Numbered from the stretch's first letter, positions 10,924 to 46,993 are shown. The stretch is DNA of 64,000 nt from an uncultured Alphaproteobacteria bacterium (GCA_946623825.1 CAMORN010000001.1:322246-386245), one strand, 5' to 3'. Numbers and translations: made by a program. Notes: generated by a model from the letters alone, not told the origin.

Positions 10924-11451
10924 ATGAATTACCCATATATGCCTAAATCAACAGCCTTGTGGCTTATAGAAAATACAGCTTTAACATTTGAACAAATCGG
11001 TGAATTTTGTGGCTTGCACGAATTGGAAGTCAAAAAAATTGCTGATGCAGAATCAAATAAAATGCAGGGTTTGAACCCAATTATTCACGGTCAAATCACA
11101 CGTGAAGATATTGAAAGATGTGAAGCTGATCCAAATGCACGCTTGGTTTTGCGTGAAGAAATCATAGAAGCACAAAAGAAACAGAATACAAAGGGTGGTG
11201 GTTATACACCAAAATTACACCGTCAAAATCGCTTGGGCGGAATTTTGTGGATTTTGAAAAACTATCCAGATTTGAAAGACAGCCAAATTGCTCGTTTAAT
11301 GCGCAGCACAAAACCAACAGTATCTTCTGTTCGTAATAAAACACATAAATCTTATTCAACGATTCAAATTCAGAATCCTATTGTTCTTGGTCTGGTTTCT
11401 GAATCCGCTTTGCATGAAGCAAACGCAAAGGCACAGAAATCTAGTAAATAA
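10924..11451 (+). CDS. DUF1013 / TrcR-like cell-cycle transcriptional regulator
   Basis: Trimmed to ATG 10924. MPKSTALWLIENTALTFEQIGEFCGLHELEV is the conserved N-terminus of the alphaproteobacterial DUF1013 family. Confidence 0.7.
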   Translation: MNYPYMPKSTALWLIENTALTFEQIGEFCGLHELEVKKIADAESNKMQGLNPIIHGQITREDIERCEADPNARLVLREEIIEAQKKQNTKGGGYTPKLHRQNRLGGILWILKNYPDLKDSQIARLMRSTKPTVSSVRNKTHKSYSTIQIQNPIVLGLVSESALHEANAKAQKSSK

Positions 11452-11491
11452 TTTTTAAAAAGTTTTATTAATAAATAACAAAGGCTTCTTT

Positions 11492-30898: not shown

Positions 30899-31522
30899 TT
30901 AACAGCCGTAACAACGACAACAACGGTTCTTGTGGCACCAAGAATCTTGTTTTCTTAACCCAAAATGTGCAGGTTTGTATTTGTGTTCCATATCAGGTGC
31001 AACTTGAAAATCTAAGGTTATCGTTATTTTGTATTTTTTGTCACCTTTCTTTTGATGTTTTGTGCGATATACAGGTTTGGTGTCGCGTCTGGCATTGCAT
31101 ATTTTGTGTGTTGGTTGCATATTCGACATATCATAGCTGCCACCTTGAGATTTTGGTTTCATATGATCCCATGTGAACGACATCTGGTCTGATTGTTTTT
31201 CGTGTTTTAATTCATAAGTGCTGATTTTAATTGGCTGACCACACAATTTACAAACTGGATAAAATTCATAATCGCCCATAATAGCATATATTTGTTTCAT
31301 AGTTCTGCGATTTATAATGTTGTTCACATGGTCCATTTTTGTTAGATCAGATATAATCTTTTTAATTTCTTTTTTTATATCTATAAAAAAGAAAAACGCA
31401 CCAGTTTTTTTGCTGTGTGCGTTCGTAAGTGTGCAGAGCAGTTTTTTTAGATGTTCTTTATCCATACAGTTGGAAAGGGCACTTACATTGTGTAAAACCT
31501 GACGAATTTCATTGTTAGTCAT
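30899..31522 (-). CDS. HNH endonuclease-domain protein with Cys-rich tail
   Basis: CKLCGQPI ... FTWDHMKPKSQGGSYDMSNMQPTHKICNARR (C-x2-C ... DH..P.s.GG...N...H..CN). The C-terminus reads CHKNRCCRCYGC. Confidence 0.7.
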   Translation of the reverse strand: MTNNEIRQVLHNVSALSNCMDKEHLKKLLCTLTNAHSKKTGAFFFFIDIKKEIKKIISDLTKMDHVNNIINRRTMKQIYAIMGDYEFYPVCKLCGQPIKISTYELKHEKQSDQMSFTWDHMKPKSQGGSYDMSNMQPTHKICNARRDTKPVYRTKHQKKGDKKYKITITLDFQVAPDMEHKYKPAHFGLRKQDSWCHKNRCCRCYGC

Positions 31523-31660: not shown

Positions 31661-31734
31661 GCGGGCGTGGTATAATGGCAGAACGAAAGCTTCCCAAGCT
31701 TTAGACGAGGGTTCGATTCCCTTCGCCCGCACCA
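31661..31734 (+). tRNA. tRNA-Gly (anticodon CCC), encoded CCA
   Basis: GCGGGCGTGGTATAATGGCAGAACGAAAGCTTCCCAAGCTTTAGACGAGGGTTCGATTCCCTTCGCCCGCACCA. Acceptor GCGGGCG/CGCCCGC, anticodon loop TTCCCAA. Confidence 0.9.
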
Positions 31735-31738
31735 AGAT

Positions 31739-31775
31739 AAAAAAACAACCGGCGTTTTGCCGGTTGTTTTTGTTT
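31739..31775. terminator. Bidirectional terminator (tRNA-Gly and the giant gene)
   Basis: A-run, ACAACCGGC-GTTTT-GCCGGTTGT, T-run. Confidence 0.7.
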
Positions 31776-31786: not shown

Positions 31787-34700
31787 TCAGAACACAGATG
31801 CGTCGTGGGCATTATATCTGTCACCACCGTATTCAACATGCATTTTACGTGATGAATCCTTGTTTATCGGAATTTCCGGATCTTTCGTCAACATTATGTA
31901 ATATGGAACATTGTTTTTGTGTATAACCATTGCAGGGTGGGTTGTCTGTTGTTCGTACATACATATTCTTTCGTTGCCGACACGCAGCCATTTGCCAGAT
32001 TCGCAAACGAATTCCCATATAGCGTATAAAGTGATTTCTGTTTCGTTATATGGTGGGTTTTCAGTCATTTTATTTGTGAAAGAAATCACATCACTGTCTG
32101 CAGATTTTGACCAGCCCAATAATCTATAACCAAATCTATTTATTTCGGTTTCTTTGTTATTTCTGATGTCGCAATTATAATCATCATATTCACAAACAAC
32201 ATCGTTTTTGAATCCGTTTCCACCATTTGCATCAAATTTCACAGTAAATGTATTATAACGCCAGTTTGCATAACAAGAAATCACTGTCCCTGTATCTTCA
32301 GCCCAAGAAATGTTTTCTGTGTTTATACTATAATTCTTTATCTTGCTCTTATATGCGTTGCTGACACAAGACCAACCATTAAATACTTTATCTTCTGCAT
32401 CAGGACATTCGGATAACGAATTTTTATAATTTCCAAGATTAAAGTTTTCACCATAACTGATTTGTTCATATCCGACAAGGTCTAATTTTTCATCGTTGCA
32501 ATAGACATTATAATCTAATTTGCTCTTTTCATAATAGCCGTATACGTCCAGCATACCGACAGTCAAAACATCGTTTTCTTGGTCTGCATAATCAACACCA
32601 TTTTCGTCTTGCCATGTTTTGAAAGCATAACCTTCTACATATTGAGGCCATATTTCTGAAAGAGGTATGCCATTTATATATTCTGCAATATATGGAACAT
32701 CTAATTCTTCTGTTTCATCGTTTATATTGTTGTGTACAGTGATTGTTGTAAAGCAATCATCAATAGATGTTAAACTGCCTTCTATGTAATTAGGGAACAA
32801 ATCAGGACATTTTTTACACGCTATTTCGCGTCTGTCATAATATTCATCGTCAGCACATGTGAATTCGCGCCATTGTGCGTGTAAATATACTTTATCATTG
32901 TCTACTTCGGTCAAATATTGTATATCCCCATCTGGACCGATGCTTGTCATGTCGGCAATGATATCTTCGTCATTGCATTCTGCAGTGTACATGTTTCCTT
33001 GACACCAACCAATGAAAGTGTTCATTTGTTTTGTGAATGGATTTTTTATCAATTGTTTTGTTTCACCATAATTGAAAGATTGTGTAGAAGTTCTGTTCGG
33101 TACACCGCTGTTAGGTCTAAAATACACTGTGTATTTTATAGGTCTACATTTATTTTGTGTAAGCGATGTTTCTTCGCCAGTTTCTGAATCTATAACAAAG
33201 GTTTCATCAACAACATATCCAACAAGGCAATTTGTGTCTTCTATGATACAATTTTCAGGTATTCTGGACGGTTCGCCATTTAATATAGTCCAAGAATCTT
33301 CCACTTTAAATTTACAAGATATCGCAGGTGATGTACATTCTGGCGGTGTGGTGCCACAGTTTTCTATATTATAACACTGTGATACAGATGTCGCCCCATC
33401 TGGTGCAAAAGGATAAGCATCTGGACAGGCAATACATGTATTTGTCGCACCGTCAAAATATTGACCTTTTTCAGCAGAATCAAGACCTGTTATACATTCT
33501 GGTTCTTCCCATTGTGCAACACAGTTTATTGATGTTAATGTCATATCTGGAACAATAGATGTTGCGGTATTCGTAAACGCGGCACCAGTATCACAAATCC
33601 AGCCAGTAAATCTGTATGTACCATATTTGTTTTCACAAGTATTTACACTTGGAATAGATATTGTTTGACCTGTCTTTTTTGTGCCAGAAACAATTAAATC
33701 TGAATTGTCTGAATCACAATAGAACGCATAATTCAAATCTAACTGGTTCCATTGGGCATACAAATTCAAATCAGTATAGAATGTTTTTTCTATTGTGTAT
33801 GGTTTATGATAATTTTGTTCATCGCATATTTCAGAAGAAACACACCAACCAGTAAATTCATAACCGTCTTTTATAGGGGTGCTTATTTGATATTCTTCGT
33901 CTATTTGATATGTGCTTGGATGTACAGGGCCTGTCCAATTAGTTATTTCAACACTGCCGTCGTAATATTTTACATTATATGTATCTTTGTGCCATTGTGC
34001 GTATAAATGTTCGGTTGCACCGTCTGTCGTTGATAAATGTGCAACATCTCCATCTGGGCCGACCACAGCACCATTTGTGATTATCGTATCACAGGTTTCG
34101 GCACCATGACACCAACCATCAAAAATATAACCATTTCTTTCAAATGTATTTAAATTCAAGTTAGTGTTTGTGTCATATACAAATAATTGATTTTCCATCT
34201 GTATATCGTTTGTGTTACTGTTACCATGGAATTCAACTGTATATGTTATAGGTTCACACACACCGTTGTTTTCTTTATAACCAACAGTGCAATTTGTAGC
34301 GTTAATTTGACAGCGACCATCTATATCAGTTGTTTTTGGATAATATACATTCCATGTTGTATCACCAATATATTCACAACTGGTCGCTTTTGGATGAACT
34401 TCATTACATTTTTCAATTGTTAATGGTAATGGATTGCAAGATTCTTTTTTATAACAACCATTTGCTGAATTTGTATCTGTATCAGAATAACCATATCCAT
34501 CAGGACACTGATGACAACTGTTAGTAGCCGTGTCAAAATATTCAGCAACTGTATCATTATTACCAACAGAACAATTTATTCTGTTCCATGTTGCAGTCCA
34601 TGTCGTTGTAAATTCTGACATGTTTCTTATATTTGCTATGAATGAATCAGTGTTTACAAAAAGACCGTCTTTATTAACTGTTTCTGTTAAACCAGAATCA

Positions 34701-37700
34701 ACAAAACCATTAAATGTATACCATGTGCGTTTTGGCAAATTGTCGTTTTGCAAACTATTTACAACTTTGTTTTCGTCTGCAAATACAACAGATTTATAAA
34801 TATCATTTCCATTTATTGCGTCTGCATAAATGTAAAGATGGTTTATATCGCCTGAAACCGCATCTTCGGCACCAGGGTCAAGAACTATTGTTTTTATTGC
34901 ACTCCATTGTGCGACCCATTTTAAATCGCCTGTGTTTATAATATTATCTATTGCAGATTTTCCATATTGGGTCAGGGTGCCATCTTTATTAACCATTAAG
35001 ACACCGTCGCTGCTGTTTGTGTAGCCAGCAAAAGAATAATTTGCTTTCGTTGGCAAGAACGCAGTTAAATTTGCAGAATTTGATGTGTTTCCAACAAAAT
35101 TCTTAAATTCTTGGTCGGCATAGAAAGAACCTTCGTCAATATAAAGGTGTCCCAAACCGCCTTCTGAACCTTCACCGTTATCAAGTTCTATATTATAGAA
35201 CGCAATAACCCAATGCGCCCACAAATCTATTTGACCGTTTACAAGATCACTTCTGTTAAATGTTGTATTTGTTAATTTTCCACCGACAAAATTACCATTT
35301 GAATCTATCAAAGCATCGCAGCCGTCCGGATTCTTTGGAATTGGTAAAGCTTGTCTGGTCAAACAATATCCTGTAAAACCGTGTCCTTTCCATTCTGGGG
35401 CAGTAATACTGTTGATTTCAACACCTTCGGCATTTTCAAAATGTTCACCATATATCTGATATATTTCAGTATTATCATCGTCGCCATTATCATAATTTAA
35501 AACGATTTTTATCTTAGCTGGGTTCCATGTTGCAAAACAAGACACTTGTTCCAGATAGCCGTTTTCCCATTTAACACCCGTTGCATCAATGTCAAAATCT
35601 TGGCTTATTGTCGCGTCGCTTGGTTTAATACATGTCCATTTTACAGGATCATATGTATTGTTGTATGCAGAACAAGAATCTATTATCAACTGTTTATTAT
35701 CAGATATATCAAATGTCTCATCAAAATGTTTCACAACTGTTGTAATTTTAGGATTAACATTTGAATCACAGTACAAATTATAAGACATTTCTTTTGCTGT
35801 GTAATATCCATGCAAGATGTTAAGCCCGTTTTCTGCTGCCAACACAGAATTTGAATTATATGTAATATCGCCCGTTGAATTTGTCCATTTTTGTAATTCA
35901 TAACCGTCCAATGGGGAAGCCGTTTGTTCTGAATTTAAATCAGACAACAATATTCCAGATTGTCTGGCCGAAGAATAATTATATTTTCTTGTTTCAAGTG
36001 TTTCGTACAAAGCATCATTTATATATTTTTCAATTTTAAGTTCAGAATAACAATTTTCCATGGTCATAGTTTCAAGGTTTGCTTTGTTCGACAATGGATA
36101 TGCAGCAGGGCACCCCTTGCAAGAATTAGATGCGGTATCAAAATATTGATTGTTTTCGCATACAATATCACCCCATCTTGCATATAAAGTTATTGTGTTG
36201 TCATCGTTGTTATCTGGTGTGTTATCAACGATGTTTGTAATACTTGTGGTTTTGGTGTTTTGGTCTGTGTACCAACCTTGGAATGTGTGCCCAATCCATT
36301 GTATATCGTTAAGCGCCAGTGGCAAATCGGTATAAATATAATTTGTAGTGGCTGGTTTGGATATGCTTCCGTTGGCGTCGCCCAGATTATATTCTATATG
36401 ATATGTTATTGGTTCCCATTTTGCATACAATGTTATATCTCTTGCAGAATCTGTAAGAACCGTATATGGATTAAATGAAGGTGAACAATTTGAATTTGTA
36501 TCATCACACCAACCAGCAAACACATAGTAAGGTTTTGTTGGGTTTTGTATGTCAAAATTATCTTGTTCTATATTATATAATGCAGGTGCCTCGTAATCTT
36601 GTGGCCATACGGCGTTTGCCATACTGGCTGTGTCATATTTAATTGAATAGTTTGTTGGTTCCCAATGTGCGTATAACACACCAGAGCCAGCTGTTTGCCA
36701 CATTTTTAATGATTCAATAGCACCATTTGATGAAACACCATAATATTTGTTTCCAGAATTATCTCTTGTGTCCCAATATCCGGTAAATGTGTATCCTTTG
36801 CGAACAGGTATAGTTAATGGTTTGTCGACATTGTTTTCTTTATATGTTGTTGGCACATAGTCATCATAAGTTGCAGAAACTGTTGCAACTTTTTGGTCTG
36901 TATCGCCATAGTTTTGATATAAATCAATGTTATATTTATTAGGATTCCATGTTGCATACCATACCGTGTCATCATCTGACAGGTTTTTCATAATTTCTTT
37001 TGCTCTGTTATTAAATACGATAAAGACATTATTGCTGCTTGCAGTTGTTGTTGCCATAGGACATAAACCAGCGGCGGTTTTTTCGGACGCATCACAGGTT
37101 CCTTCACCGACATAGCCAGAGAAAGTATAACCAGTTTTCAAAGGTATTCCATATGTGTTGGTGTTTATTTCCACGTCTTGTACAGTGCTGCCCAATCCTG
37201 AGTCAGAAACAAAACTTTCATTTGCGTTAACCAATGTGTGGTCTGTGTACATAGCAGACAATCCGTTGGTGTCTTCTGGGGTATTATTATTGATATCGTC
37301 ATCTGAATCTTCATTGTCCAGTGTTATTTTATAAAAACGGGTCCAATGAGCGGTCAATTCCATGTTATCAAAAACATCATATACCAATGAATTATAATTT
37401 TCTTCGCTGATGGTGGCTTTTCTGCTTCTTTGTGGGTTAATAACCATTGTTTCATTGTTGTCTATAATTCCATAGTATCCATCAAATCTGTGTTTTAACC
37501 ATGATGGTTCTTCAATATTATCTGTGTTAAAGAAGTTTATAGAATGTCCAATATCTTTATACAATTGTTTTGCATGTACACCATATAATTTAGATGTACC
37601 TTGTTCAACTTCAGATGTTGGGGCATTGTTTGCTTCGCCCAGATTCAAAATGATTTCGTACGCATTTGATTCCCATTTTGGATGGCAATCTATTCTGTAT

Positions 37701-40700
37701 AATTCTTGGTTATGGTTTGCAGGAATAATTGTGGTCCAATTATTGTCAGAAACCTTGTAATTAAATGGGTTAGGGGAACTTGCTGTATCAGGATTGTTTC
37801 CGCTGGACAGTGTATATTTTGTGCATTCCCATTCGCCTTTGTGGACATAATCTTCTGCTTCGGTACAAATCGGACTTGTTTGGTTTATTGTTTTATTTAA
37901 ATTGGTTGGGAAATTAATTTCTGCACCAAAAGACAACAAGGTTGGATTTTGTATTAGTTTAGTATTGTTCGTATCACAATATAAATTAACATTATATTGA
38001 TTATCATAAATACAGGTTGGATACATGTTTGTTGGGTTTTCATCAAAATGTGAAGCATTTACCACTATGTCACCATTGCTCGCAATCACCAGCCCCAGTC
38101 CTTCATAATAACCAATAAACTTTTTACCAGTCGCGCATCTTCCCTGTAAAACACCTTCATACATATTTGGTTGTTTCACATTGTCTATAACGAATTGTTT
38201 TGTGGTGTCCAAGAATTTATCACCATAACTTTCTTTTATATTAATAGCATTTTCCACATTATTATCATACAAATAAATATCTATTATCTGTGGTTCCACA
38301 GAAGAATAACATTCAACAGAATCAATAGACCCGTCAGTCTGGATACTGTCGCCACTGATAACGGATTCGCAATTTAAATCATCTGGTTTTATGCTTGAAT
38401 CATTTGGTTTATAACAGAAAGTTTCTGTTTTTTCACCGTTTTGGTTTTGACTGTTATATGTCTTTTTACATACCCAATAATAATGATTGTCGGTATGGCA
38501 AATGTTTTGTGTATCAAAACCACCAGTTTTACTGATAAGACCATATTTTGGATTACCCGGTGTTGTTGGTATTATGCTGTTTAATACGACGCCGGTTTCA
38601 ACAGCTGCACTGGTGCTTTCTGCACAGCTAAAACCATAAGATGTGCTTGAATCAACAAAATGTGCATATAAATCTATATTGCCATCAACAATATATTTTT
38701 CTAATTCAGATATCTTAGGTAAATCTGCTTGTGCTTCATTGACGGGCGGGGCAATTATTTGTTTGCCACTGTCATCTCTCACACTGTAATAACCATCAAA
38801 TTTTCCATATTTATTATCATCTGGATTTGATGGAATATAATTAGTTCCTGTTCCAGAATTGTCCTGCAGAGCATATATTGGCGTATTAACTTCGTGATTT
38901 ACTGGGTTATAGTCTCTATAATAACCTCTTACGAATGTAAGGCCTTGTTGTTCATCTATAACAAAAGATTTTAAATCGTATTTAACATATAAAGTATATG
39001 TTTCTTTATCAGGTGTTTGGGCATTGTTTCCGTTGTTCCCATGCAATGTTAAGGTATATATTTTTGGTCTGAACGATGGTGTGCATCTTACAGTATATGT
39101 TCCGGTTGGGTATGTTATACTGTTTAATAATTCACCGGTTGTCGAATCATATACAGGCAAATATTTTATGACGTTATCACGATCACTAAGTTGTGCACAC
39201 TGCCAGAATACTTCTTTGTGTTCCTTGTAAAAATCGTTAGAATAACCGCATCTTGATATAACTGTTTCATCACTTGGGAACAAATTGCCTTCTTTTGCAG
39301 ATACAGTTGTGTTTTGACCGACTATATCTTCGTTGTAACCTGGGGTTTTACCCAATACAATAGAATCACCAATCTTGCTGGTATAATTTCCATTATTACA
39401 TTTGAATATTATTTCGGTCTGTTTCTGCCAATCGGCTACTAAATTTGTATGTTGGCTGACCGCTTTATCCTTATAAGAATCGTCTATGAATGTACCGTTT
39501 TCATCTATTACTTGAATTCTTCTGTTGATACTTTGATCTGTGTACCAATAACCTAAGAATTTCCACGCGTGTGCAGATGGTACATTTGGTAAAGTGTCAT
39601 TAACCAATGCTGGGCCAACGACCGTTCTTGTTTGGGCATCATAGGAAGATTTTGGATAGATTTCCGTGAGATATTGTTCATACAAAATATCTGGGCCTGC
39701 GACTTTGTTTGGTGCGTTTTGCAGATTAGGATCTTTTCCAAAATTATCGCTTAATGTTATTTTATACATCTGTGGGCGCCATACACCATATAATTGCACA
39801 ATATGTTGGACATCATTTGGAATTGTTTCTTCTGGGTTTGGTGTGTAGACGCTGCCGTTTCTACAATATAAAGAATTCCATCTCAACCCTGCAGATGAAA
39901 GAACATTACCGTTTGCATTATAATATCTTACCGCCTTTCCAGAAGCGGTATCTTCGATATTCGTGGTTAAATTACCCATATTATCAGCAGCACAACTGCG
40001 GATTCCATTGTATCCGATAAATTCATATCCCGGACATTCTGGAACAACCAATCTGTTGTCATTTATGTCCACGGTGTACATTATACCATTGGTTTTATAT
40101 GTTTCTATTATCTGGTCTGGCACAGGGCTGTTGATTTCAAGGTTTTCTTCATCAAAATAGGCATTTGGAACAAATTCACCACTGAAAATACCTTTTGTGT
40201 TAACATGACTATAATCAATACCGTTTGAGTTTCTTGCGTTATAACAGTTTCTGTACAAATATATTTTTTCCAACGGTCTTTCTGTACTGGATCCTTTTAC
40301 TACACACATAAGCTTTCTGGTTGAATTTGAACTTTGATTATAAAAACTGTCTTCTTCATTAGAATCTGCAACACGATACAAACCATTAAGGATTCGTGGT
40401 AATCCACTGGTTGGGTCGGAACCTTCTACTGCTACTAAATTTTCATTTGATGCTTCACCTAATGCTTCACATTGTTCATTAGCAGTTGAAAAATTTGTGC
40501 CTGTTTCTGCAATGCCAAGTGAACCCGCGTTTATATTTGGAACCCCAACAAACATACCAGCAGTGGCCTTGGCAGAATTGACAGAATTAATACAAACATC
40601 ACCAAAAAACATTCTTGGAATATAATTTATGGTTTCTTTTGTGCCTGTTTCTGTAGAATATAAATATTGTATGTTGGAACACCCATAAAACGTTTCAGCA

Positions 40701-41761
40701 TATGCTTTTGAATCTGAAGAAAAGTTTTCATAATTACCGCACTGTTGTTGTAATAGTGTTGTTTTGTGTGTGACACGACGACCAAATCCCTGAAACAAAT
40801 ATCTTGGGATACCAGTTAAGCTAGAACAATTTTTAAATGTTCTGAAAAACATTTCTGGTTGGGTCGCGTTTGCAAATGTATCAAATAAACCTTCTGGAAT
40901 ATCACCAGTCAACCCAGAGCAACCTGAAAATGTACTACTAAATAAACTTGGGGTTATATCACCTTTGATACTTTTGAACAGATTTGCAGGTATTCCATAC
41001 ATACCCAACCCGTTTTCAGTACCCAATTTCGAACATCCTGCAAATGTTGCAAAGAACATAGCGTCAGAAGGGGTACCACGCAACCCATTAGAAAACAGGT
41101 TTTCTGGAATTTGACCCTCTAATTCAGAGCAACCTGCAAAAGCACTGCGGAAACTTGGCTGCTTTTGAACAGATTCTTGTATGATATTATAATCAACATC
41201 TGGCCCCAGACTGATATCTGTATGGGTAGGGAACACAGCGCCCAAAGAACCGTAAATTCCTTTTACAGCATAGTTGTTTTCGATGCTTTCTGTACCACCA
41301 CCAGAAAAAACTATTGCACCAGATGTTTTGCTATAGCCCCTGTAATCACAATCAGCAGATCTTCTAAATTTAATATAACGCGTATTGGCGTTGGTATATG
41401 TTTTTTCAAATTTTATTGTGTTGACAGTCTTTTTCTTGAAAGAAGCAACGAAATCATTTCTTCTGTATTCTTTAATTTCTGTGTTGTCTGGCAATTCTTC
41501 TTGGTATACAGACATTTGTCCGGCGCCACATTCTTCATCATCCAGACTTGCACAGTCCCATTTGATATCATAACAACCGGCGGCACTTAAAGAAAAAGTG
41601 AATTTATAACCATCTTGTAATCTTGGTGTTATTTTGACAGCAAAATAATCTGTAATTGCATCATCTGCAAACGAAGGTTGTGCAAAAACTGGTACAAAAA
41701 CGACAGATAACGCAAAAACTGCGCTTTTTAAAACAGCACAAAAATCGCGGAATACCGCCAT
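31787..41761 (-). CDS. Giant secreted mosaic surface protein (3,324 aa from ATG 41761): LRR-like repeats, InlB-type B-repeats and Cys-rich modules
   Basis: Uninterrupted 10 kb ORF. ATG 41761 follows AGGAAGGA. Signal peptide MAVFRDFCAVLKSAVFALSVVFVPVFAQPSFA. See the sub-features for the repeat content. Confidence 0.85.
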   Translation of the reverse strand: MAVFRDFCAVLKSAVFALSVVFVPVFAQPSFADDAITDYFAVKITPRLQDGYKFTFSLSAAGCYDIKWDCASLDDEECGAGQMSVYQEELPDNTEIKEYRRNDFVASFKKKTVNTIKFEKTYTNANTRYIKFRRSADCDYRGYSKTSGAIVFSGGGTESIENNYAVKGIYGSLGAVFPTHTDISLGPDVDYNIIQESVQKQPSFRSAFAGCSELEGQIPENLFSNGLRGTPSDAMFFATFAGCSKLGTENGLGMYGIPANLFKSIKGDITPSLFSSTFSGCSGLTGDIPEGLFDTFANATQPEMFFRTFKNCSSLTGIPRYLFQGFGRRVTHKTTLLQQQCGNYENFSSDSKAYAETFYGCSNIQYLYSTETGTKETINYIPRMFFGDVCINSVNSAKATAGMFVGVPNINAGSLGIAETGTNFSTANEQCEALGEASNENLVAVEGSDPTSGLPRILNGLYRVADSNEEDSFYNQSSNSTRKLMCVVKGSSTERPLEKIYLYRNCYNARNSNGIDYSHVNTKGIFSGEFVPNAYFDEENLEINSPVPDQIIETYKTNGIMYTVDINDNRLVVPECPGYEFIGYNGIRSCAADNMGNLTTNIEDTASGKAVRYYNANGNVLSSAGLRWNSLYCRNGSVYTPNPEETIPNDVQHIVQLYGVWRPQMYKITLSDNFGKDPNLQNAPNKVAGPDILYEQYLTEIYPKSSYDAQTRTVVGPALVNDTLPNVPSAHAWKFLGYWYTDQSINRRIQVIDENGTFIDDSYKDKAVSQHTNLVADWQKQTEIIFKCNNGNYTSKIGDSIVLGKTPGYNEDIVGQNTTVSAKEGNLFPSDETVISRCGYSNDFYKEHKEVFWQCAQLSDRDNVIKYLPVYDSTTGELLNSITYPTGTYTVRCTPSFRPKIYTLTLHGNNGNNAQTPDKETYTLYVKYDLKSFVIDEQQGLTFVRGYYRDYNPVNHEVNTPIYALQDNSGTGTNYIPSNPDDNKYGKFDGYYSVRDDSGKQIIAPPVNEAQADLPKISELEKYIVDGNIDLYAHFVDSSTSYGFSCAESTSAAVETGVVLNSIIPTTPGNPKYGLISKTGGFDTQNICHTDNHYYWVCKKTYNSQNQNGEKTETFCYKPNDSSIKPDDLNCESVISGDSIQTDGSIDSVECYSSVEPQIIDIYLYDNNVENAINIKESYGDKFLDTTKQFVIDNVKQPNMYEGVLQGRCATGKKFIGYYEGLGLVIASNGDIVVNASHFDENPTNMYPTCIYDNQYNVNLYCDTNNTKLIQNPTLLSFGAEINFPTNLNKTINQTSPICTEAEDYVHKGEWECTKYTLSSGNNPDTASSPNPFNYKVSDNNWTTIIPANHNQELYRIDCHPKWESNAYEIILNLGEANNAPTSEVEQGTSKLYGVHAKQLYKDIGHSINFFNTDNIEEPSWLKHRFDGYYGIIDNNETMVINPQRSRKATISEENYNSLVYDVFDNMELTAHWTRFYKITLDNEDSDDDINNNTPEDTNGLSAMYTDHTLVNANESFVSDSGLGSTVQDVEINTNTYGIPLKTGYTFSGYVGEGTCDASEKTAAGLCPMATTTASSNNVFIVFNNRAKEIMKNLSDDDTVWYATWNPNKYNIDLYQNYGDTDQKVATVSATYDDYVPTTYKENNVDKPLTIPVRKGYTFTGYWDTRDNSGNKYYGVSSNGAIESLKMWQTAGSGVLYAHWEPTNYSIKYDTASMANAVWPQDYEAPALYNIEQDNFDIQNPTKPYYVFAGWCDDTNSNCSPSFNPYTVLTDSARDITLYAKWEPITYHIEYNLGDANGSISKPATTNYIYTDLPLALNDIQWIGHTFQGWYTDQNTKTTSITNIVDNTPDNNDDNTITLYARWGDIVCENNQYFDTASNSCKGCPAAYPLSNKANLETMTMENCYSELKIEKYINDALYETLETRKYNYSSARQSGILLSDLNSEQTASPLDGYELQKWTNSTGDITYNSNSVLAAENGLNILHGYYTAKEMSYNLYCDSNVNPKITTVVKHFDETFDISDNKQLIIDSCSAYNNTYDPVKWTCIKPSDATISQDFDIDATGVKWENGYLEQVSCFATWNPAKIKIVLNYDNGDDDNTEIYQIYGEHFENAEGVEINSITAPEWKGHGFTGYCLTRQALPIPKNPDGCDALIDSNGNFVGGKLTNTTFNRSDLVNGQIDLWAHWVIAFYNIELDNGEGSEGGLGHLYIDEGSFYADQEFKNFVGNTSNSANLTAFLPTKANYSFAGYTNSSDGVLMVNKDGTLTQYGKSAIDNIINTGDLKWVAQWSAIKTIVLDPGAEDAVSGDINHLYIYADAINGNDIYKSVVFADENKVVNSLQNDNLPKRTWYTFNGFVDSGLTETVNKDGLFVNTDSFIANIRNMSEFTTTWTATWNRINCSVGNNDTVAEYFDTATNSCHQCPDGYGYSDTDTNSANGCYKKESCNPLPLTIEKCNEVHPKATSCEYIGDTTWNVYYPKTTDIDGRCQINATNCTVGYKENNGVCEPITYTVEFHGNSNTNDIQMENQLFVYDTNTNLNLNTFERNGYIFDGWCHGAETCDTIITNGAVVGPDGDVAHLSTTDGATEHLYAQWHKDTYNVKYYDGSVEITNWTGPVHPSTYQIDEEYQISTPIKDGYEFTGWCVSSEICDEQNYHKPYTIEKTFYTDLNLYAQWNQLDLNYAFYCDSDNSDLIVSGTKKTGQTISIPSVNTCENKYGTYRFTGWICDTGAAFTNTATSIVPDMTLTSINCVAQWEEPECITGLDSAEKGQYFDGATNTCIACPDAYPFAPDGATSVSQCYNIENCGTTPPECTSPAISCKFKVEDSWTILNGEPSRIPENCIIEDTNCLVGYVVDETFVIDSETGEETSLTQNKCRPIKYTVYFRPNSGVPNRTSTQSFNYGETKQLIKNPFTKQMNTFIGWCQGNMYTAECNDEDIIADMTSIGPDGDIQYLTEVDNDKVYLHAQWREFTCADDEYYDRREIACKKCPDLFPNYIEGSLTSIDDCFTTITVHNNINDETEELDVPYIAEYINGIPLSEIWPQYVEGYAFKTWQDENGVDYADQENDVLTVGMLDVYGYYEKSKLDYNVYCNDEKLDLVGYEQISYGENFNLGNYKNSLSECPDAEDKVFNGWSCVSNAYKSKIKNYSINTENISWAEDTGTVISCYANWRYNTFTVKFDANGGNGFKNDVVCEYDDYNCDIRNNKETEINRFGYRLLGWSKSADSDVISFTNKMTENPPYNETEITLYAIWEFVCESGKWLRVGNERICMYEQQTTHPAMVIHKNNVPYYIMLTKDPEIPINKDSSRKMHVEYGGDRYNAHDASVF
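32750..32857 (-). other. Cys-rich module A2 (paralogue of A1)
   Basis: CADDEYYDRREIACKKCPDLFPNYIEGSLTSIDDCF (residues 2979-3014). Confidence 0.6.
33143..33496 (-). other. Cys-rich module B2 (paralogue of B1)
   Basis: CITGLDSAEKGQYFDGATNTCIACPDAYPFAPDGATSVSQCYNIENCGTTPPECTSPAISCKF...ENCIIEDTNCLVGYVVDE...KCRP (residues 2766-2883). Confidence 0.6.
34253..34573 (-). other. Cys-rich module B1 (extended, about 107 aa)
   Basis: CSVGNNDTVAEYFDTATNSCHQCPDGYGYSDTDTNSANGCYKKESCNPLPLTIEKCNEVHPKATSCEY...GRCQINATNCTVGYKENNGVCEP (residues 2407-2513). Confidence 0.6.
36047..36160 (-). other. Cys-rich module A1 (C-x4-Y-F-D-x5-C-x2-CP)
   Basis: CENNQYFDTASNSCKGCPAAYPLSNKANLETMTMENCY (ORF residues 1878-1915). 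Confidence 0.6.
40532..41155 (-). repeat. Five leucine-rich-type repeats with core F-x-G-C-S-x-L-x-G-x-IP-x-x-LF (BspA/DUF285-like)
   Basis: FRSAFAGCSELEGQIPENLF / FFATFAGCSKLGTENGLGMYGIPANLF / LFSSTFSGCSGLTGDIPEGLF / FFRTFKNCSSLTGIPRYLF / YAETFYGCSNIQ...IPRMFF (ORF residues 213-420). Confidence 0.6.
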
Positions 41762-41830
41762 CTGTATAAAAATCCTTCCTTTTATATACACAGAGTGTAG
41801 AAAAATGCGAAAATTAAGTAAAGCAAAAAA

Positions 41831-42904
41831 TTATATGTGTTTTTGTTTTAATGTGTCGGCTATAACTTTAAGCTTTGATATCACATTCGTGACGGAAAAA
41901 ATCTTTTGATTACAGACTTTTTTAATGTTTGTTTTGGTTCCATTATTGCAAACTGGACATTGATTAATATCTGTGTTTTGCAACGCAGGGCATGTTTTAA
42001 GCATTTTTATTATCGGTTTTTGTTGTCCGGTGTATAATTTCGAGTATTGTTCTTTGTTTGTTTTTTTCATGTTTAACAAAAACACATATGCTGGACAAAT
42101 TTGTTTTGCTTGTTCTGATTTTTGCTTTATTTCTGCGTAATATCGTTTTTGTTGTGCAAGATATCTTTCTTTATTTGCTTCGTAATTTTCTTTGTTCTTT
42201 TTGCAATATTGTTCGTGTTTTGCAACATAACATTTTTTCTTGCGTTCAGATACTGCCTGAGCATTTGTTTTGCGATATTTCTTAAAATATCTCTTTAAAT
42301 GTTCTGCGTTATCTTGACGCCATTGTGATTGGTATGCACGATATTGTTCAACATGATTCAACCGCCATTGTTTGTTTCTTTCAAGAACAAGCTTTTTATT
42401 TAACCGATAAAATCTGCGTTTGTTTTTTCGATTGTATTCACGAACAAATTCTTTTCGTTCTTGTACAGCTATATGAATTTTTTCGATTATATTTGGTTTT
42501 GATTTTATTAAATATGCACTACGGTTTTGCAATACAGATTCTTGATTTAATCTTTTTATTTTGTCTATTTGTATTTGAAAGGGGATTTTTTTAGAAATAA
42601 ATAAAATTAAATTTTCATCAACGTACGCACCACCACACATTAAATCAATAAATTCTGTTTCTGTAAAAACATTTTTTAAATCAGATTTTTCTAAAAAAGT
42701 TTTAATGTCTTTTACATAACTTGAATCAAATAAAAACCATTCTAAAAACAATTCTGATAATGTTGTTATTCGTCCAATTTCATTGTCAGAATAAACAGTA
42801 TTTGTTAAACTATAATTGCCATCTTCTGAATTCATAAAAGCAAACATACCGGAAGCGATGGAATAATTTTCTTCAAAAAGTTTTTCTGGGGTATTCATGT
42901 TCAA
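41831..42904 (-). CDS. Hypothetical protein (357 aa) with periodic basic Tyr/Trp-Asn repeats and a C-terminal Cys cluster
   Basis: Clean ORF 14 nt downstream of the radical SAM gene. Residues 150-265 are K/R/Y/N/E-rich with about 19-aa periodicity. The C-terminus has CPAL...CPVCNNG...C. Confidence 0.6.
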   Translation of the reverse strand: MNMNTPEKLFEENYSIASGMFAFMNSEDGNYSLTNTVYSDNEIGRITTLSELFLEWFLFDSSYVKDIKTFLEKSDLKNVFTETEFIDLMCGGAYVDENLILFISKKIPFQIQIDKIKRLNQESVLQNRSAYLIKSKPNIIEKIHIAVQERKEFVREYNRKNKRRFYRLNKKLVLERNKQWRLNHVEQYRAYQSQWRQDNAEHLKRYFKKYRKTNAQAVSERKKKCYVAKHEQYCKKNKENYEANKERYLAQQKRYYAEIKQKSEQAKQICPAYVFLLNMKKTNKEQYSKLYTGQQKPIIKMLKTCPALQNTDINQCPVCNNGTKTNIKKVCNQKIFSVTNVISKLKVIADTLKQKHI

Positions 42905-42918
42905 TATTTACTTTAATA

Positions 42919-43767
42919 TTATTTAATAATCTGTTGAAACGAGTTTATAATTTTAATTAAACTGCGATTGTTAACTTGTGTGCGATATATGTAATTATAG
43001 GTTGCAATATCATTGTTATCTAACACCAAACAATTGTGTCTATCACTGTTAGTTGGTTGACCAGAATTTGTATAAACTTTATTTATTTTTGCGCGACCTG
43101 AATTAAACACACTAGATGAAAAATCATTGTATATAAACATTGTGTTTTTACCGTCTGGTGATGTTATTATCCAATCACCAATTTCATTTGTAATGATATT
43201 AAAATCTTTCTTGGATAATTCTTGTTCTAAATTATTTAATGCAAACAATGATTTTTGTGTGTTAAAACCAACCAGACAAATTCTGATTGCATAAGACAAA
43301 GCGATTTCTTTTGTAATATCATTGATTATTTTTATAACACCACTTTGATTGTTATGAAATTCATCAACAGAAATATCTAGTGTTACTAATTTTTCGTATT
43401 TATAAGCATACTTTGCAATATCATACAATATTTTAATACGCGTTCTGTCGCTGTTTCCCCAAACACCATTTGTTTTGAGTGTTGGAATAAAACCGTTTTT
43501 ATAAATAATATCTAACAGATTTGGAATATAATTATCTTGTCCGTGAATATAAGGTGCCATAACTTCACCGCCACCAACACTTAACAATTCATTTGGTTTT
43601 TTGTCCATGCGTGCGGCTTCGTACATATATTTTTCAATTTTTTCTAATGAAAATAATTTTAATGGTTGGGTTGGGGCGCTGCATTCACAACAATGTCGAC
43701 AATTTAAGTCGCACCAATTTGTTATCTTGAAATGAAGATTCCATTTTGTATTCATATTGGACAACAA
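42919..43767 (-). CDS. Radical SAM enzyme (minimal, about 280 aa, no obvious SPASM or auxiliary-cluster domain)
   Basis: NWCDLNCRHCCE gives C-x3-C-x2-C at residues 19-26, and SVGGGEVM is the GGE SAM-binding motif. TTG at 43767; an alternative ATG lies at 43755. Confidence 0.7.
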   Translation of the reverse strand: MLSNMNTKWNLHFKITNWCDLNCRHCCECSAPTQPLKLFSLEKIEKYMYEAARMDKKPNELLSVGGGEVMAPYIHGQDNYIPNLLDIIYKNGFIPTLKTNGVWGNSDRTRIKILYDIAKYAYKYEKLVTLDISVDEFHNNQSGVIKIINDITKEIALSYAIRICLVGFNTQKSLFALNNLEQELSKKDFNIITNEIGDWIITSPDGKNTMFIYNDFSSSVFNSGRAKINKVYTNSGQPTNSDRHNCLVLDNNDIATYNYIYRTQVNNRSLIKIINSFQQIIK

Positions 43768-43770
43768 ACA

Positions 43771-44034
43771 TTATCTGCCATTTCTTTTGGGATTATATGT
43801 GTTGTTTAGGTCGTGTGTAAATTTGCTTATTTCCCTGACGCGTTCCCATCGTAATAAAAGATTATATCTTTCGATTTCGCGCATATAATCCAATAATTTT
43901 TGTTTATCTTCCAATTTTACATTAACAAACCAATTAGCATACATTATACCCCTTATTTGTCCCATCAATTTGCGACAATTTGGTTCTTTCTTTAAATTTC
44001 TGGACATATAATAAGGTTGAACGTATTTTGGCAT
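43771..44034 (-). CDS. Small basic hypothetical protein (87 aa)
   Basis: ATG 44034 after AAGGA. 3-nt gap to the radical SAM ORF and 9-nt gap from the LysM gene. No known motif. Confidence 0.5.
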   Translation of the reverse strand: MPKYVQPYYMSRNLKKEPNCRKLMGQIRGIMYANWFVNVKLEDKQKLLDYMREIERYNLLLRWERVREISKFTHDLNNTYNPKRNGR

Positions 44035-44043
44035 TATAAATCC

Positions 44044-45174
44044 TTATTTAACAGGGATTTTTAAATCTTGTTCTGGGAATATCAAATCAGGATTTTCGAT
44101 TTTGTTTTCTTTTGCTATTGTTGTGAACAAGATACCTTTGCGCAAGAAATTGCGTGCAATTATCCATAAACAATCCCCGCGACGAACGGTATAAAATGTG
44201 TTATTAGCACCAGTCATATTTGGCATAACAAATTTATGTTCAATATCGGCAACAACATTGCCTTCGCCATCATGTAAACGAACATTCATTTTATATGTTG
44301 CGCCTTCTTTTAATTTACCGACATCAACGCCCAGACCATAATTTTTATAACTGGATACGCGTGCATAACCAAGGTATTTATCGTTTAAAGACAAAGATAC
44401 TCTTAATTTTGGCAAAGCTTTACCAGAAACAACCAAACGGCCAGATTCAAGATAATCTATTTTGGATACTGTCAAATCACCATCTTCTACATTTGGAGCT
44501 TGCAAAAATTTGCTGCCGTTTTTAGTTAATAACAAAGATGTTGAATTTTTATATCCGCGTTCAGAAATATAAACAAAAACAGAATTTTCAGATTTGATAT
44601 TTTTTGTTATATCTATCAAAGAAATTACATAGTTGCCTGGTTTATATGCGTTTGCAGGTGCAAAAACAAATTCACCATTTTTATTTGTGTGTTCTGTGGC
44701 AATTATTTTGTTGTTCATAATAACAGAAACATTATCCCCAGGAATTGTACGGCCAGCAATAACCAATTTGCCGTTTTCTTCAATTCTTACAATATCAAAT
44801 TCTGGTTTTGTGATTTCTTTTACAGAATTTGTTTTATCAATTGGTTTAATAACTGGTTCCGGAACAGCAGGGGCAATAACTTTTACCGGAGTGTTTATTT
44901 TTACCAACATAACAACGACGGCTATCAAAACAACCAACAACGCGCATAACATAGGGAACCAATAAGAACGCAATGTGTTTTTATTTTTTTCGTTTGTTGT
45001 TTTTTGTTTTACAGATTTTTGTTCTGGCTGTTTTGTGTTGAACATATTAAATTTACGCAAAAATTCGCGTGTAAAATTACGACGTTTTTCCAACCAAGAT
45101 TGTTGACGATTTACAGCCCCATTTATAATTTCATCTGTTGAACGTTTTGTTTTGTTGATATTGGTTGTTGCCAT
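44044..45174 (-). CDS. Single-pass membrane protein with Ig-like beta-sandwich repeats and a C-terminal LysM domain
   Basis: Start moved to ATG 45174 (AAGGGGG RBS). TM YWFPMLCALLVVLIAVVVMLV. Two GR/GK...P...V.V-type repeats (GRTIPGDNVSVIMNNKIIATEHTNKNGEFVF; GKALPKLRVSLSLNDKYLGYARV). LysM: YTVRRGDCLWIIARNFL...NPDLIFPEQDLKIP. Confidence 0.75.
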   Translation of the reverse strand: MATTNINKTKRSTDEIINGAVNRQQSWLEKRRNFTREFLRKFNMFNTKQPEQKSVKQKTTNEKNKNTLRSYWFPMLCALLVVLIAVVVMLVKINTPVKVIAPAVPEPVIKPIDKTNSVKEITKPEFDIVRIEENGKLVIAGRTIPGDNVSVIMNNKIIATEHTNKNGEFVFAPANAYKPGNYVISLIDITKNIKSENSVFVYISERGYKNSTSLLLTKNGSKFLQAPNVEDGDLTVSKIDYLESGRLVVSGKALPKLRVSLSLNDKYLGYARVSSYKNYGLGVDVGKLKEGATYKMNVRLHDGEGNVVADIEHKFVMPNMTGANNTFYTVRRGDCLWIIARNFLRKGILFTTIAKENKIENPDLIFPEQDLKIPVK

Positions 45175-45208
45175 GCTAAGCCCCCTTGTTTGTTTTCTAC
45201 TTGACAAA

Positions 45209-45236
45209 ATTATTACAAAAAATATTTATTTGTCAA
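45209..45236 (-). promoter_or_regulatory. Candidate promoter of the LysM / radical SAM gene string
   Basis: Minus strand TTGACA (45236-45231), 16-nt spacer containing TGn, AATAAT (45214-45209), about 30 nt upstream of ATG 45174. Confidence 0.45.
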
Positions 45237-45279: not shown

Positions 45280-46368
45280 TTGGCAACTAAAAAAATTGGA
45301 ATTATGACAACAGGTGGCGATTGTTCGGGGTTAAACACCGTTATTCAACGCATTGTTGACGGCTGTGAGCATCGTAAATGGCATGTAATAGGTATCCAAG
45401 ATGGTACGGACGGTTTATATTCATCACCGGCAAAAACAATAGATTTGTCTGATGCCACTTTTTTATTTGCTAATTCTTATTCATCGGGCAGTATTCTGGC
45501 GAACGGAAATGAAAACGCAACAAATTTTGAATCTGCGGCACGCGCGGGTAAATTAAGTGCTTTTAATAAAAGATTGCAAAAATCATTAAAAGATTTGAAT
45601 TTGGATGCTCTTATTTTGATTGGTGGCAATGGCAGTTTGTCATTGGCACATTTATATAAAGAAATATATTCAGATTTGCAATTAATATGTATTCCAAAGA
45701 CAATGGATCTTGATATACCTTTAACCGATAAAACAATTGGTTTTGATACAGCGGTGCAACAATTGTCTTATTATGCAGAACAATTGTTATTAATTGCGCG
45801 CAGTCATCACAGATGGTTTGTTATTCAAGCAATGGGGCGCGCCTGTGGAAGTTTGGCTTTACACGCGGGTGTTGCAGTTGGCGCAGATGCAATTTTGATA
45901 CCAGAGGTAAAATTTGATGTTGATAATTTGGTTAAACATATTAAAAAATCAAAACGTGATTATGGAATAATAATGGTATCAGAAGCAATTTCAATTCGTG
46001 GGCATTCTGGAAAACCTGCAGATATGATTTCACGTGCATTAAATGCTGCAAATATACCAAACAGAACATCTTTTCCTGAACATCTGCAAAGGGCGGGCAA
46101 TACAACTGCAAACGACAGAATATTAGCCATGGGTTTTGCTGATACTGCATTAAAAGCAATAGAAAACAATGAAACAAATGTCATGACTGTATTACAAAAT
46201 GGTGAATACAAAACGGTATCTTTGAGTGATTTCTTTGATGCAGGACGAAAAGTGAAAGATCCACATATTGTTGGTGTAATGACTTCAAATCGTTATGTAG
46301 AACCAGACGATGTATTATTGCAAATAGCAACAGATATGGGAATTTATATCGGTGAAAAAAGAAAATAA
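45280..46368 (+). CDS. 6-phosphofructokinase (PfkA family; phosphoryl donor ambiguous)
   Basis: IGIMTTGGDCSGLN, LILIGGNGS, IPKTMDLDI, AMGRACGSLAL, EHLQRAG align with the PfkA motifs GGDxPGxN, GGDGS, PGTIDND, MGRxxG, GHxQRGG. Confidence 0.85.
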   Translation: MATKKIGIMTTGGDCSGLNTVIQRIVDGCEHRKWHVIGIQDGTDGLYSSPAKTIDLSDATFLFANSYSSGSILANGNENATNFESAARAGKLSAFNKRLQKSLKDLNLDALILIGGNGSLSLAHLYKEIYSDLQLICIPKTMDLDIPLTDKTIGFDTAVQQLSYYAEQLLLIARSHHRWFVIQAMGRACGSLALHAGVAVGADAILIPEVKFDVDNLVKHIKKSKRDYGIIMVSEAISIRGHSGKPADMISRALNAANIPNRTSFPEHLQRAGNTTANDRILAMGFADTALKAIENNETNVMTVLQNGEYKTVSLSDFFDAGRKVKDPHIVGVMTSNRYVEPDDVLLQIATDMGIYIGEKRK

Positions 46369-46369
46369 T

Positions 46370-46993
46370 ATGTTCGGATATAAAGTTTATATAAACTTGT
46401 TTTTGTATAAAATTGGCGCAAAACATATATTGCCGTCTGCAATCATAAACAGCAAACCAATTAAAGAAAACAACGAAGATTTAGTAAAATATCAAAATGT
46501 TTTTGTTCGCAAATCTGTTGCTAAAATGTTAAAGATAGCGACAAATTTGCTGCCAAAAGATTATTCTTTTAAAATATTGTGTGGTTATCGTTCAATAGCC
46601 GAACAACAAAAAAATTGGGAAAACGGTATAAAAATACTTATAAAACAACACCCAACATTATCAATATCTGAAATAGAAAACATCAACAGAAAAATGAACG
46701 CAGATCCAAGACGTGGCTTCGGCCCACATCAAACGGGTGGAGCAACAGATATAATTTTGTTATACAAAAACAAACCTGTTGATATGGGTGGCGAATATAT
46801 GTCAAACCTAAATTCTAAAACATATTCTAAAAATTTAACAAACATCCAAAAAACAAATCGTAAAATTTTAATTACCGCACTTGAAAGTGTCGGATTCCAA
46901 AATTATCCAAATGAGTGGTGGCATTGGTCTTACGGAGACAGGGCTTATGCAGCATATAAAAATAAAAAATATGCAATTTATGGAAAAAAATAA
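46370..46993 (+). CDS. D-alanyl-D-alanine dipeptidase (peptidase M15D, VanX/DdpX-like)
   Basis: CGYRSIAEQ, GPHQTGGATD (H-x2-G-x-A-x-D zinc site), NEWWHWSYGD (EWWH). The start is uncertain (GTG 46352 or ATG 46370). Confidence 0.8.
   Translation: MFGYKVYINLFLYKIGAKHILPSAIINSKPIKENNEDLVKYQNVFVRKSVAKMLKIATNLLPKDYSFKILCGYRSIAEQQKNWENGIKILIKQHPTLSISEIENINRKMNADPRRGFGPHQTGGATDIILLYKNKPVDMGGEYMSNLNSKTYSKNLTNIQKTNRKILITALESVGFQNYPNEWWHWSYGDRAYAAYKNKKYAIYGKK

Follow-up and report, generated by a model that had tools for sequence, protein, structure and literature searches.

A 64 000-nt stretch of DNA from an uncultured Alphaproteobacteria bacterium (GCA_946623825.1, CAMORN010000001.1:322246-386245; this whole stretch is called the window) carries four adjacent minus-strand genes, encoding a LysM membrane protein, an 87-amino-acid (aa) protein (p87), a radical S-adenosylmethionine (SAM) enzyme (rSAM) and a partner protein (p357), and then a giant gene for a surface protein. 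Our analysis supports a real, undescribed unit within this array, consisting of a palindromic promoter, the LysM gene, the gene for a single-cluster rSAM enzyme and the p357 gene; the support comes from homology, fold, motifs, synteny and the shared promoter. The enzyme is evolutionarily tied to the LysM protein and p357, and not to the adjoining giant gene. The unit is specific to reduced-genome gut and rumen Alphaproteobacteria (Candidatus Enterousia and related metagenome-assembled genomes, MAGs), with p87 and the giant gene as probable later lineage additions outside it.

Gene neighbourhoods were compared in 50 species-level loci from GTDB genomes and in metagenome loci (1.17 Mb fetched in all; individual loci have L numbers). 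Open reading frames (ORFs) in these loci were called by a simple longest-ORF rule and then clustered, and p357 was searched for with HMMs of its three regions. The nearest relative of the window is L007. All relatives are known from MAGs of gut, rumen or faecal origin, under the label Alphaproteobacteria bacterium or that of Candidatus Enterousia, the latter belonging to the uncultured order Rs-D84, with genomes of ~0.75-1.0 Mb and a presumed dependence on partners (PMC12306168).

The LysM and rSAM genes are linked in 24 of the 50 GTDB loci (setting A, below); in most of these the stop of one and the start of the other overlap as TAATG or are ≤8 nt apart. In 25 of the 50, and in at least five genomic settings, p357 is found downstream of rSAM, without exception on the same strand; the gap is usually -31 to +14 nt, p357 is 5-5.7 kb downstream in setting C, and all cases fall within 6 kb. 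A reverse search seeded with p357 found rSAM upstream in 4/4 loci having enough flanking DNA. An earlier reading of the window, made from its sequence alone (the sequence-only reading), had proposed that all four genes and the giant gene form one functional unit. That interpretation is partly supported: neighbourhood conservation upholds the syntenic LysM, rSAM and p357 genes, including the assignment of the protein with periodic basic repeats to the enzyme's unit as a consistent same-strand partner; p87 was detected in two genomes, and the giant gene is absent beside the cassette in all relatives.

The four minus-strand genes of that reading were reproduced by our ORF list, and so was their domain content (LysM with a weak Ig-like match, a CX3CX2C/GGGE radical SAM enzyme, basic repeats with a CxxC tail). 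The gaps of 9, 3, 14 and 69 nt that it reported are right for its start codons. Slightly different starts are likelier for several genes, judging by homologue lengths, ribosome-binding sites (RBSs) and a separate annotation of this genome (products of 376, 87, 278, 355 and 3324 aa). Values of dN/dS between the window and L007 are 0.066 for the neighbouring PFK gene, 0.078 for LysM, 0.149 for rSAM and 0.334 for p87; all are below 1, consistent with purifying selection on these four genes.

The radical SAM enzyme

The rSAM ORF (42919-43767, minus strand) encodes 282 aa with the start codon first read, and 278 aa from the likelier ATG at 43755 (42919..43755). Its homologues form 89 clusters at 90% identity, all of ~278 aa. 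An exhaustive profile search gave ~23 clusters at 50% identity, followed by a score gap from 172 to 125 bits before a sister group, likewise an unnamed family, whose members have 316-336 aa and come from MAGs of Pseudomonadota and Alphaproteobacteria. The enzyme defines a small family that occurs only in MAGs of Alphaproteobacteria from gut and rumen (Candidatus Enterousia and its relatives).

The family motifs are C15-x3-C19-x2-C22 and G62-G63-E64, with C15, C19, C22 and GGE invariant in 40 homologues (alignment A1; the window protein has GGGE), and TNGxWG, DEFH and GRAK. The window enzyme scores 25.7 bits (E 1.4e-5) on PF04055, against a gathering score of 29.5, and many homologues have a precomputed PF04055 match. 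An AlphaFold2 (AF2) model has a pLDDT of 93.5 and a partial TIM-barrel fold. Foldseek with this model returned 36 PDB matches at E ≤0.001, all except the weakest being radical SAM enzymes.

The C-terminal 90 residues hold one near-invariant cysteine, C242, which is missing from three members. No second Cys cluster, CC or CxxC occurs in this domain in family alignments A1 and A3, and the SPASM/twitch motif CX2CX5CX3C was not found in them either, confirming the description in the sequence-only reading of a minimal enzyme lacking SPASM or a second Cys cluster. Curated models in Pfam, NCBIfam, PHROGs and PADLOC gave the enzyme sub-threshold matches only, its C-terminal domain had no meaningful match among PDB sequences, and viral contigs of IMG/VR were matched only by generic N-terminal radical SAM similarity. 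That reading had recognised no described system in this gene combination, and among the curated family and defence models none covers the enzyme.

The closest characterised relative, top by every method, is EpeE/YydG of the Bacillus subtilis epeXEPAB operon (PDB 8AI1-8AI6; TIGR04078). YydG heads the PDB sequence-profile search with E 3e-13, far above lysine 2,3-aminomutase (1e-4) and SkfB. Its Foldseek match to the rSAM model (E 2.5e-12, TM score 0.63, with a core similar in size) is five orders of magnitude better than those of SkfB, SuiB and viperin, and hhalign of the rSAM family with the YydG family gives a probability of 99.6% and E 1.7e-23 over 166 columns. Common to both are CX3CX2C with the following HCC, GGE, (T/S)NGxWG, DE(F/Y)H and GRA. 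Descent from the same stock as EpeE/YydG is what these profile comparisons indicate. On TIGR04078 itself, rSAM scores 47.3 bits against a cut-off of 300; true members reach 458 bits (P0202) and 431 bits (P0224).

EpeE has as hallmarks a second [4Fe-4S] cluster in its T-SPASM (extended twitch) domain and Cys223 as H-atom donor (PMC13012085). C207, C223, C224, C290 and C293 (the last two as C290-x2-C293) are invariant in the YydG family, and the rSAM family lacks both C223-C224 and C290-x2-C293. In a manual alignment C242 of rSAM matches C207 of YydG by position, and N254-Y255 sit at the position of the PCC hairpin, although both correspondences are only inferred because the hhalign alignment ends before this region. 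Loss of the auxiliary Cys ligands and of the Cys-Cys pair implies that rSAM has no auxiliary [4Fe-4S] cluster and no Cys223-type H donor, and its outcome therefore need not be epimerisation. The enzyme is thus related to EpeE but lies outside the YydG family, its twitch domain being degenerate and free of clusters.

Gene context separates the two further. The epeXEPAB operon has a small precursor peptide, a membrane protease and an ABC exporter, and the rSAM unit has none of these; no small ORF is conserved adjoining rSAM among the fetched loci. The partners of rSAM, a 355-aa protein predicted to be folded and the LysM membrane protein, are unlike those of EpeE, and the hosts are Alphaproteobacteria, not Bacillota. 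No paper combining radical SAM, LysM, Alphaproteobacteria and epimerase was found in the literature library searched.

Other known systems are more distant. The SPASM/twitch maturases SkfB, SuiB and anSME are the next structural matches (E 1e-7 to 1e-5, TM 0.41-0.55) and act on peptides or proteins, with the substrate gene adjoining the enzyme gene; rSAM lacks the SPASM/twitch cysteines and a recognition element of the type found with peptides that are made on ribosomes and modified after translation (RiPPs), and its NCBIfam scores are negligible. Activases of the pyruvate formate-lyase activating enzyme type resemble it in having one [4Fe-4S] cluster, ~250-280 aa and a folded protein partner encoded adjacently, but their Foldseek match (3C8F, E 3e-4) is much weaker than that of EpeE, and p357 has no glycyl-radical-type motif or fold, no invariant Gly in its C-terminal module and no PDB fold relative. 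Prokaryotic viperins (pVips) are single-cluster enzymes of ~280-300 aa with a weak structural likeness to rSAM (E ~1e-7, TM ~0.4); against this, rSAM scores 18.2 bits on NF038283 (cut-off 180), has no PADLOC match and has no conserved nucleotide-kinase partner. QueE, NrdG and viperin models all score far under their cut-offs on rSAM. In RiPP-type clusters a maturase is genetically coupled to its substrate gene, which is often multi-copy. p357 is coupled to rSAM and frequently duplicated, in tandem or internally; on the other side, it has 355 aa, is predicted to be folded and is missing from about half of the loci.

Partner proteins and the shared palindromic promoter

The p357 ORF (41831-42904, minus strand) encodes 357 aa with the start codon first read, and 355 aa from the likelier ATG at 42898 (41831..42898). 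Its layout is a disordered N-terminus (1-42), a small N-domain (~40-135) that is its best-conserved part, basic repeats (~156-260) and a C-terminal module (C-module). The repeats have a 15-residue period and are basic and helical, with a regional net charge of ~+24; the AF2 model (pLDDT 81) has at least five helices of 14 residues at the 15-residue period and a helical C-module. Three cysteines (C270, C305, C316) are invariant and two more (C319, C331) near-invariant in alignments A2 and A5; residues 316-319 read CPVC. Searches of Pfam, NCBIfam, PHROGs, PADLOC, the sequences in the PDB, phage records and viral contigs gave no relative, and Foldseek gave no fold relative in the PDB (best E 2.7).

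Many loci have p357 paralogues in tandem, or a p357 in which the unit of repeats plus C-module is itself doubled, which by analogy resembles multi-copy substrate genes. The enzyme gene itself is duplicated in L046 (~10001-11630), where LysM is separated from a short p357 by tandem rSAM paralogues (282 and 271 aa). One subclade (L045-L052, L056) has, after p357, a conserved 576-580-aa protein with no Pfam match (for example L056 12525-14258), whose HENMH...EEHKAD resembles the zinc-binding motifs of M49 (DPP III-type) peptidases.

The LysM ORF (44044-45207, minus strand) encodes 387 aa with the start codon first read; the likelier ATG at 45174, with the RBS AAGGGGG, gives 376 aa (44044..45174). 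A protein identical to it over 376 aa (P0264, 100%) is encoded on a 99-kb ENA contig (ERZ28612945 scaffold_221) with matching gene order. The product has a basic cytoplasmic N-terminal tail, one transmembrane helix, an Ig-like region or regions and a C-terminal LysM domain (Pfam E 6.8e-10; Big_13 (Ig-like) and Ca_tandemer matches are weak). The N-tail is conserved (KRSTD...W..RR..F; alignment A9), with K10, S12-T13-D14, W27, R31-R32 and F38-L39.

LysM is a core gene of the clade (>1,200 clusters, against 89 for rSAM) and is present at the same locus in genomes without the enzyme. The junction between the two genes is occupied by p87 in the window and L007, and by an HNH endonuclease gene in L033, L044 and L045. 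The inclusion of LysM in the enzyme's unit thus holds in part: linkage in 24 of the 50 loci and a shared palindromic promoter favour it, and the many LysM genes without the enzyme do not. The LysM protein would be a co-regulated envelope partner and no obligatory cis neighbour of rSAM.

The promoter TTGACA-16-AATAAT (45236-45209) named in the sequence-only reading is the best consensus match in 15.5 kb, with 11/12 positions and TG ahead of the second hexamer, and is conserved in relatives. Promoter-like sites are not in excess in the region overall (82, against 74.7 ± 9.3 in shuffles); this one stands above chance because the 36-nt block containing it is conserved, not because of match count. 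The block, TTGACAAA-N20-TTTGTCAA (45201..45236, minus strand), is a perfect 8-bp inverted repeat. Both the -35 TTGACA (45236-45231) and the TG-extended -10 TGTAATAAT, which ends at 45209, lie inside it, and the full LysM promoter reads TTGACAAATAAATATTTTTTGTAATAATTTTGTCAA. The block is near-invariant in the window, L007, L066 and L068, whose LysM proteins share just 66-68% identity.

The pattern TTGACAAA-N19-21-TTTGTCAA matches the 64-kb window once, against 0 expected. Across the fetched loci (1.17 Mb) it occurs 43 times with ≤1 mismatch, which accounts for about half of all TTGACAAA octamers in that sample, and 41 of the 43 copies stand before LysM, rSAM or a sister-family rSAM operon: 29 upstream of LysM, 11 immediately upstream of rSAM genes that have relocated (settings C, D and G) and 1 upstream of a sister-family lipoprotein-rSAM pair. 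The remaining 2 copies are upstream of exported proteins. The rSAM genes of settings B, E and F retain TTGACAAA and the extended -10 without the downstream half-site. A purely bidirectional promoter fails to explain the symmetry, since setting C has the palindrome without an adjacent divergent gene.

The palindrome is a candidate operator shared by LysM and relocated rSAM genes. The simplest history would have an ancestral promoter-LysM-rSAM-p357 operon duplicated, with reciprocal loss afterwards; retention of both palindrome halves in each copy suggests continued common regulation. The sister-family pair mentioned above (L077 4471-6002, GCA_031549385.1) has the palindrome TTGACCAA-N19-TTTGTCAA, a 138-aa lipoprotein gene and, 8 nt later, rSAM, an order that parallels the LysM-rSAM arrangement. 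The two other copies with ≤1 mismatch (L048 19443-19479 and L011 16988-17026) precede a ~135-aa periplasmic protein and an LpoB-like lipoprotein, the latter read from sequence, and a two-mismatch copy is found at window 3641-3674. Palindromes before exported proteins hint at a small envelope regulon.

Another promoter-like site, TTTACA-18-TATAAT (43792..43821, minus strand, 11/12 positions), lies inside the 3′ end of p87, ~35 nt before the rSAM start codon, and might serve rSAM and p357 as an internal promoter. It is mostly retained in L007 as TTTACA...TACAAT, a conservation that is not diagnostic because the site sits within coding sequence. An Rfam search for RNA elements gave a tRNA-Gly only, and no riboswitch.

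Genomic settings and the variable island

In setting A (24/50 loci) a divergent PFK gene is followed by LysM, rSAM, p357 when present, and further on rpsP. In setting B rSAM lies between mltG/NUDIX and fabF-acpP; in settings C and D it is beside genes read as a TolC-MacAB-type efflux pump and an aryl-polyene-like lipid cluster; in setting E it follows rpsA; additional settings have 1-3 loci each. In a midpoint-rooted neighbour-joining tree, built without bootstrap, the basal grade is all setting A, while the window and L007 are nested in the setting-B clade, so that the position beside LysM in the window may be secondary. GC3 is 0.23 for rSAM and 0.21 for p357, equal to the core-gene level; the local GC dip (0.288) is therefore attributed to amino-acid composition, and there is no compositional sign of recent transfer. 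A phage or mobile origin was rejected with this core-like GC3 and a tblastn search of 50,697 phage records that found nothing.

Several neighbours recur. The aryl-polyene-like cluster borders rSAM in L005 (10884-20828) and lies upstream of rSAM in L022-L024, L027 and L036 (settings C and D). Its genes are ketosynthases (KS), a ketoreductase (KR), ApeP-like, two ACPs, AMP-ligase/ApeI-like, a GT2 glycosyltransferase, a thioesterase, LolA-like and an LpxL-like acyltransferase, with a further neighbour read from sequence as a phosphopantetheinyl transferase. In settings C and D only, rSAM is followed by genes read in the same way as a TolC-MacA-MacB-type efflux operon. A MutT-like NUDIX gene (134-160 aa) of variable orientation is within a few kb of rSAM/p357 in settings B, C and D (L001, L010, L014, L016, L022-L024, L028, L029, L036 and L043), and in none of the setting-A loci; the L022 copy shares 11 nt with the rSAM gene at the stop codon of the latter. 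In the window, a VanX/VanY-type M15 D-Ala-D-Ala peptidase gene (46352-46993, plus strand) overlaps the end of PFK by 17 nt, and among the fetched loci a gene of this kind occurs at this spot in the window's species and L007 only. Sister-family neighbourhoods were housekeeping contexts and gave no functional clue except the lipoprotein and palindrome of L077.

LysM-only loci (L066-L069) have the order DnaK, PFK, LysM, an 80-85-aa ORF, sometimes HNH, rpsP, rimM, trmD and rplS, with nothing intervening. This gene order marks the stretch from p87 to HNH/rpsP as a variable island, which in the window contains rSAM, p357, the giant gene and a tRNA-Gly gene. The region between LysM and rpsP has the look of a hot spot for insertions. 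Free-standing HNH genes recur just upstream of rpsP in the window (30899-31522, minus strand), L007 (11699-12271), L031, L066 (7762-8403) and L067, and shorter ones (144-147 aa) lie exactly at the LysM-rSAM junction of L033, L044 and L045. The tRNA-Gly(CCC) gene of the window (31661-31734, plus strand) is between the giant gene and the HNH gene.

p87 (43771-44034, minus strand) is a basic protein of 87 aa with the RBS AAGGA. Its sole detectable homologue is in L007 (69% identity), and it has no match in Pfam, NCBIfam, PHROGs or PADLOC. We considered p87 as an HNH remnant, because HNH genes occupy the same junction elsewhere, yet rejected this as they have no similarity to it. Basic helical ORFs of 80-88 aa occur after LysM (L066 7145-7387, L068 7148-7405) or after rSAM (L041/L042 ~10853-11125), many of them starting MNEK or MNED. 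Compared with p87 and with each other they have 17-23% identity in forced alignment and no jackhmmer cross-matches, and they may be fast-evolving p87 orthologues or unrelated fillers.

Substrate and function

We tentatively propose that rSAM modifies p357 by H-atom abstraction, the likeliest of the readings considered although it falls short of probable. The cytoplasmic enzyme would cleave SAM to give a 5′-deoxyadenosyl radical, which would take an H atom from a protein substrate. The likeliest substrate would be p357, probably at its conserved Cys-bearing C-module, with its conserved N-domain as the docking element for rSAM, and the product need not be an epimer. p357 is favoured because the closest relatives of the enzyme act on peptides, and because p357 travels with the enzyme and is multiplied.

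Several observations weigh against this proposal. About half of the rSAM loci, including L007, where rSAM is under purifying selection, lack p357 in the surrounding 10 kb, so that p357 may be dispensable or lie elsewhere in the genome. In ~14 rSAM loci, and in every sister-family locus examined, the enzyme stands alone amid housekeeping genes, which is compatible with a small molecule as substrate or with a substrate gene at another place. The C-module, predicted as folded and helical with CxxC...CC, has more in common with a metal- or nucleic-acid-binding module than with a peptide core, and the conserved unit includes neither a protease nor an exporter nor a RiPP recognition element. The shared promoter, for its part, could be a relic of operon duplication and reciprocal loss and not a sign of present co-regulation.

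If the substrate is not a neighbour protein, it might be a small molecule, a lipid, a cell-wall precursor or a nucleic acid, and p357, with a basic α-solenoid and a Cys4-like module, would be a targeting adaptor, a nucleic-acid- or metal-binding adaptor or a regulator. We rate this as somewhat unlikely. The lone enzymes just described suit it, as do the ~+24 charge and confidently predicted short helices of the p357 repeats together with the folded CxxC...CC module, and the two palindrome copies before exported proteins. So does the recurrence of envelope and lipid neighbours (MltG/YceG, FabF with ACP, an LpxL-like acyltransferase, the aryl-polyene-like cluster and the putative, sequence-read MacAB-TolC-type pump) and of NUDIX genes in settings B, C and D, but envelope and translation genes dominate 0.9-Mb genomes regardless (PMC12306168), and no small-molecule biosynthetic genes are kept with rSAM across settings. 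The closest characterised relatives (EpeE, SkfB and SuiB) are all peptide-acting, the viperin, QueE and NrdG models are far under cut-off and PADLOC is blank. The LysM protein could instead be the substrate or direct partner, through its cytoplasmic N-tail or as a nascent chain around membrane insertion, with p357 as an accessory or second substrate. As a core gene, LysM would supply a substrate in every genome, p357-less ones included; the TAATG overlap persists across deeply diverged genomes (rSAM 31-45% identical), one palindromic promoter type precedes both LysM and relocated rSAM genes, the N-tail is strongly conserved, and in L077 a sister-family rSAM likewise follows an exported protein (the lipoprotein), with an 8-nt gap and the same palindrome. 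We consider this decidedly unlikely all the same: p357, not LysM, accompanies rSAM on relocation, LysM orthologues without an adjacent enzyme carry the same N-tail, LysM is far commoner than rSAM, and the setting-A adjacencies may all stem from one ancestral arrangement.

The sequence-only reading had drawn the giant gene into the unit, with its product or p87 among the possible substrates of rSAM. The giant ORF (31787-41791, minus strand) has 3334 aa in the ORF list, or 3324 aa from the likelier ATG at 41761 (31787..41761), which has the strong RBS AAGGAAGGA upstream. The genes are co-directional across a 69-nt gap, a terminator scan of the minus strand found none between p357 and the giant gene, and the sole strong terminator, a 13-bp stem at 31771-31741, is 3′ of the giant gene, in agreement with the 31739-31775 reported earlier; the cassette and giant gene arrangement also recurs on independent assemblies of the window's species. 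In none of the 50 GTDB relatives or other fetched loci is a giant Flg_new gene found downstream of the cassette, weak Flg_new-type matches being at other positions in 4 loci. L007 holds tRNAs and two different secreted proteins in its place, and the LysM-only loci mark the stretch as a variable island. The giant gene could also have its own promoter, CCGACA-18-TATAAT (41830..41859, minus strand, 10/12 positions), which overlaps the p357 stop codon 69 nt before ATG 41761. Its product, with Flg_new (Listeria-Bacteroides) repeats (Pfam E 1e-29), is exported by a signal peptide, whereas rSAM is cytoplasmic. Synteny largely refutes this model, p87 is a poor candidate as a general substrate since it is detectable in two genomes only, and a single unit of cassette and giant gene is highly improbable.

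A bolder form of the p357 proposal would make this a radical SAM system of a new class: a single-cluster EpeE descendant without auxiliary cluster or thiol donor would act by non-epimerising chemistry on p357, a folded protein of full size and no short peptide, within an envelope regulon that is shared with LysM through TTGACAAA-N19-21-TTTGTCAA. This is speculative and we think it unlikely. If true, the repeat-plus-Cys module of p357 duplicates as RiPP cores do, and a lineage-specific function has been retained in symbiont genomes of ~0.9 Mb.

EpeE/YydG is the structural model for radical SAM peptide epimerisation, and a natural relative without the auxiliary cluster and Cys223 probes the roles of those elements and may perform different chemistry. 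p357 is an orphan: nothing related to it was detected by sequence or by fold, and its basic, helical repeat of 15 residues is unusual. Since nothing found ties the giant surface protein to rSAM, p357 and LysM become the focus. Purifying selection on rSAM in tiny genomes, together with the orphan p357 and an operator shared with LysM, suggests a function important to these uncultured gut bacteria.

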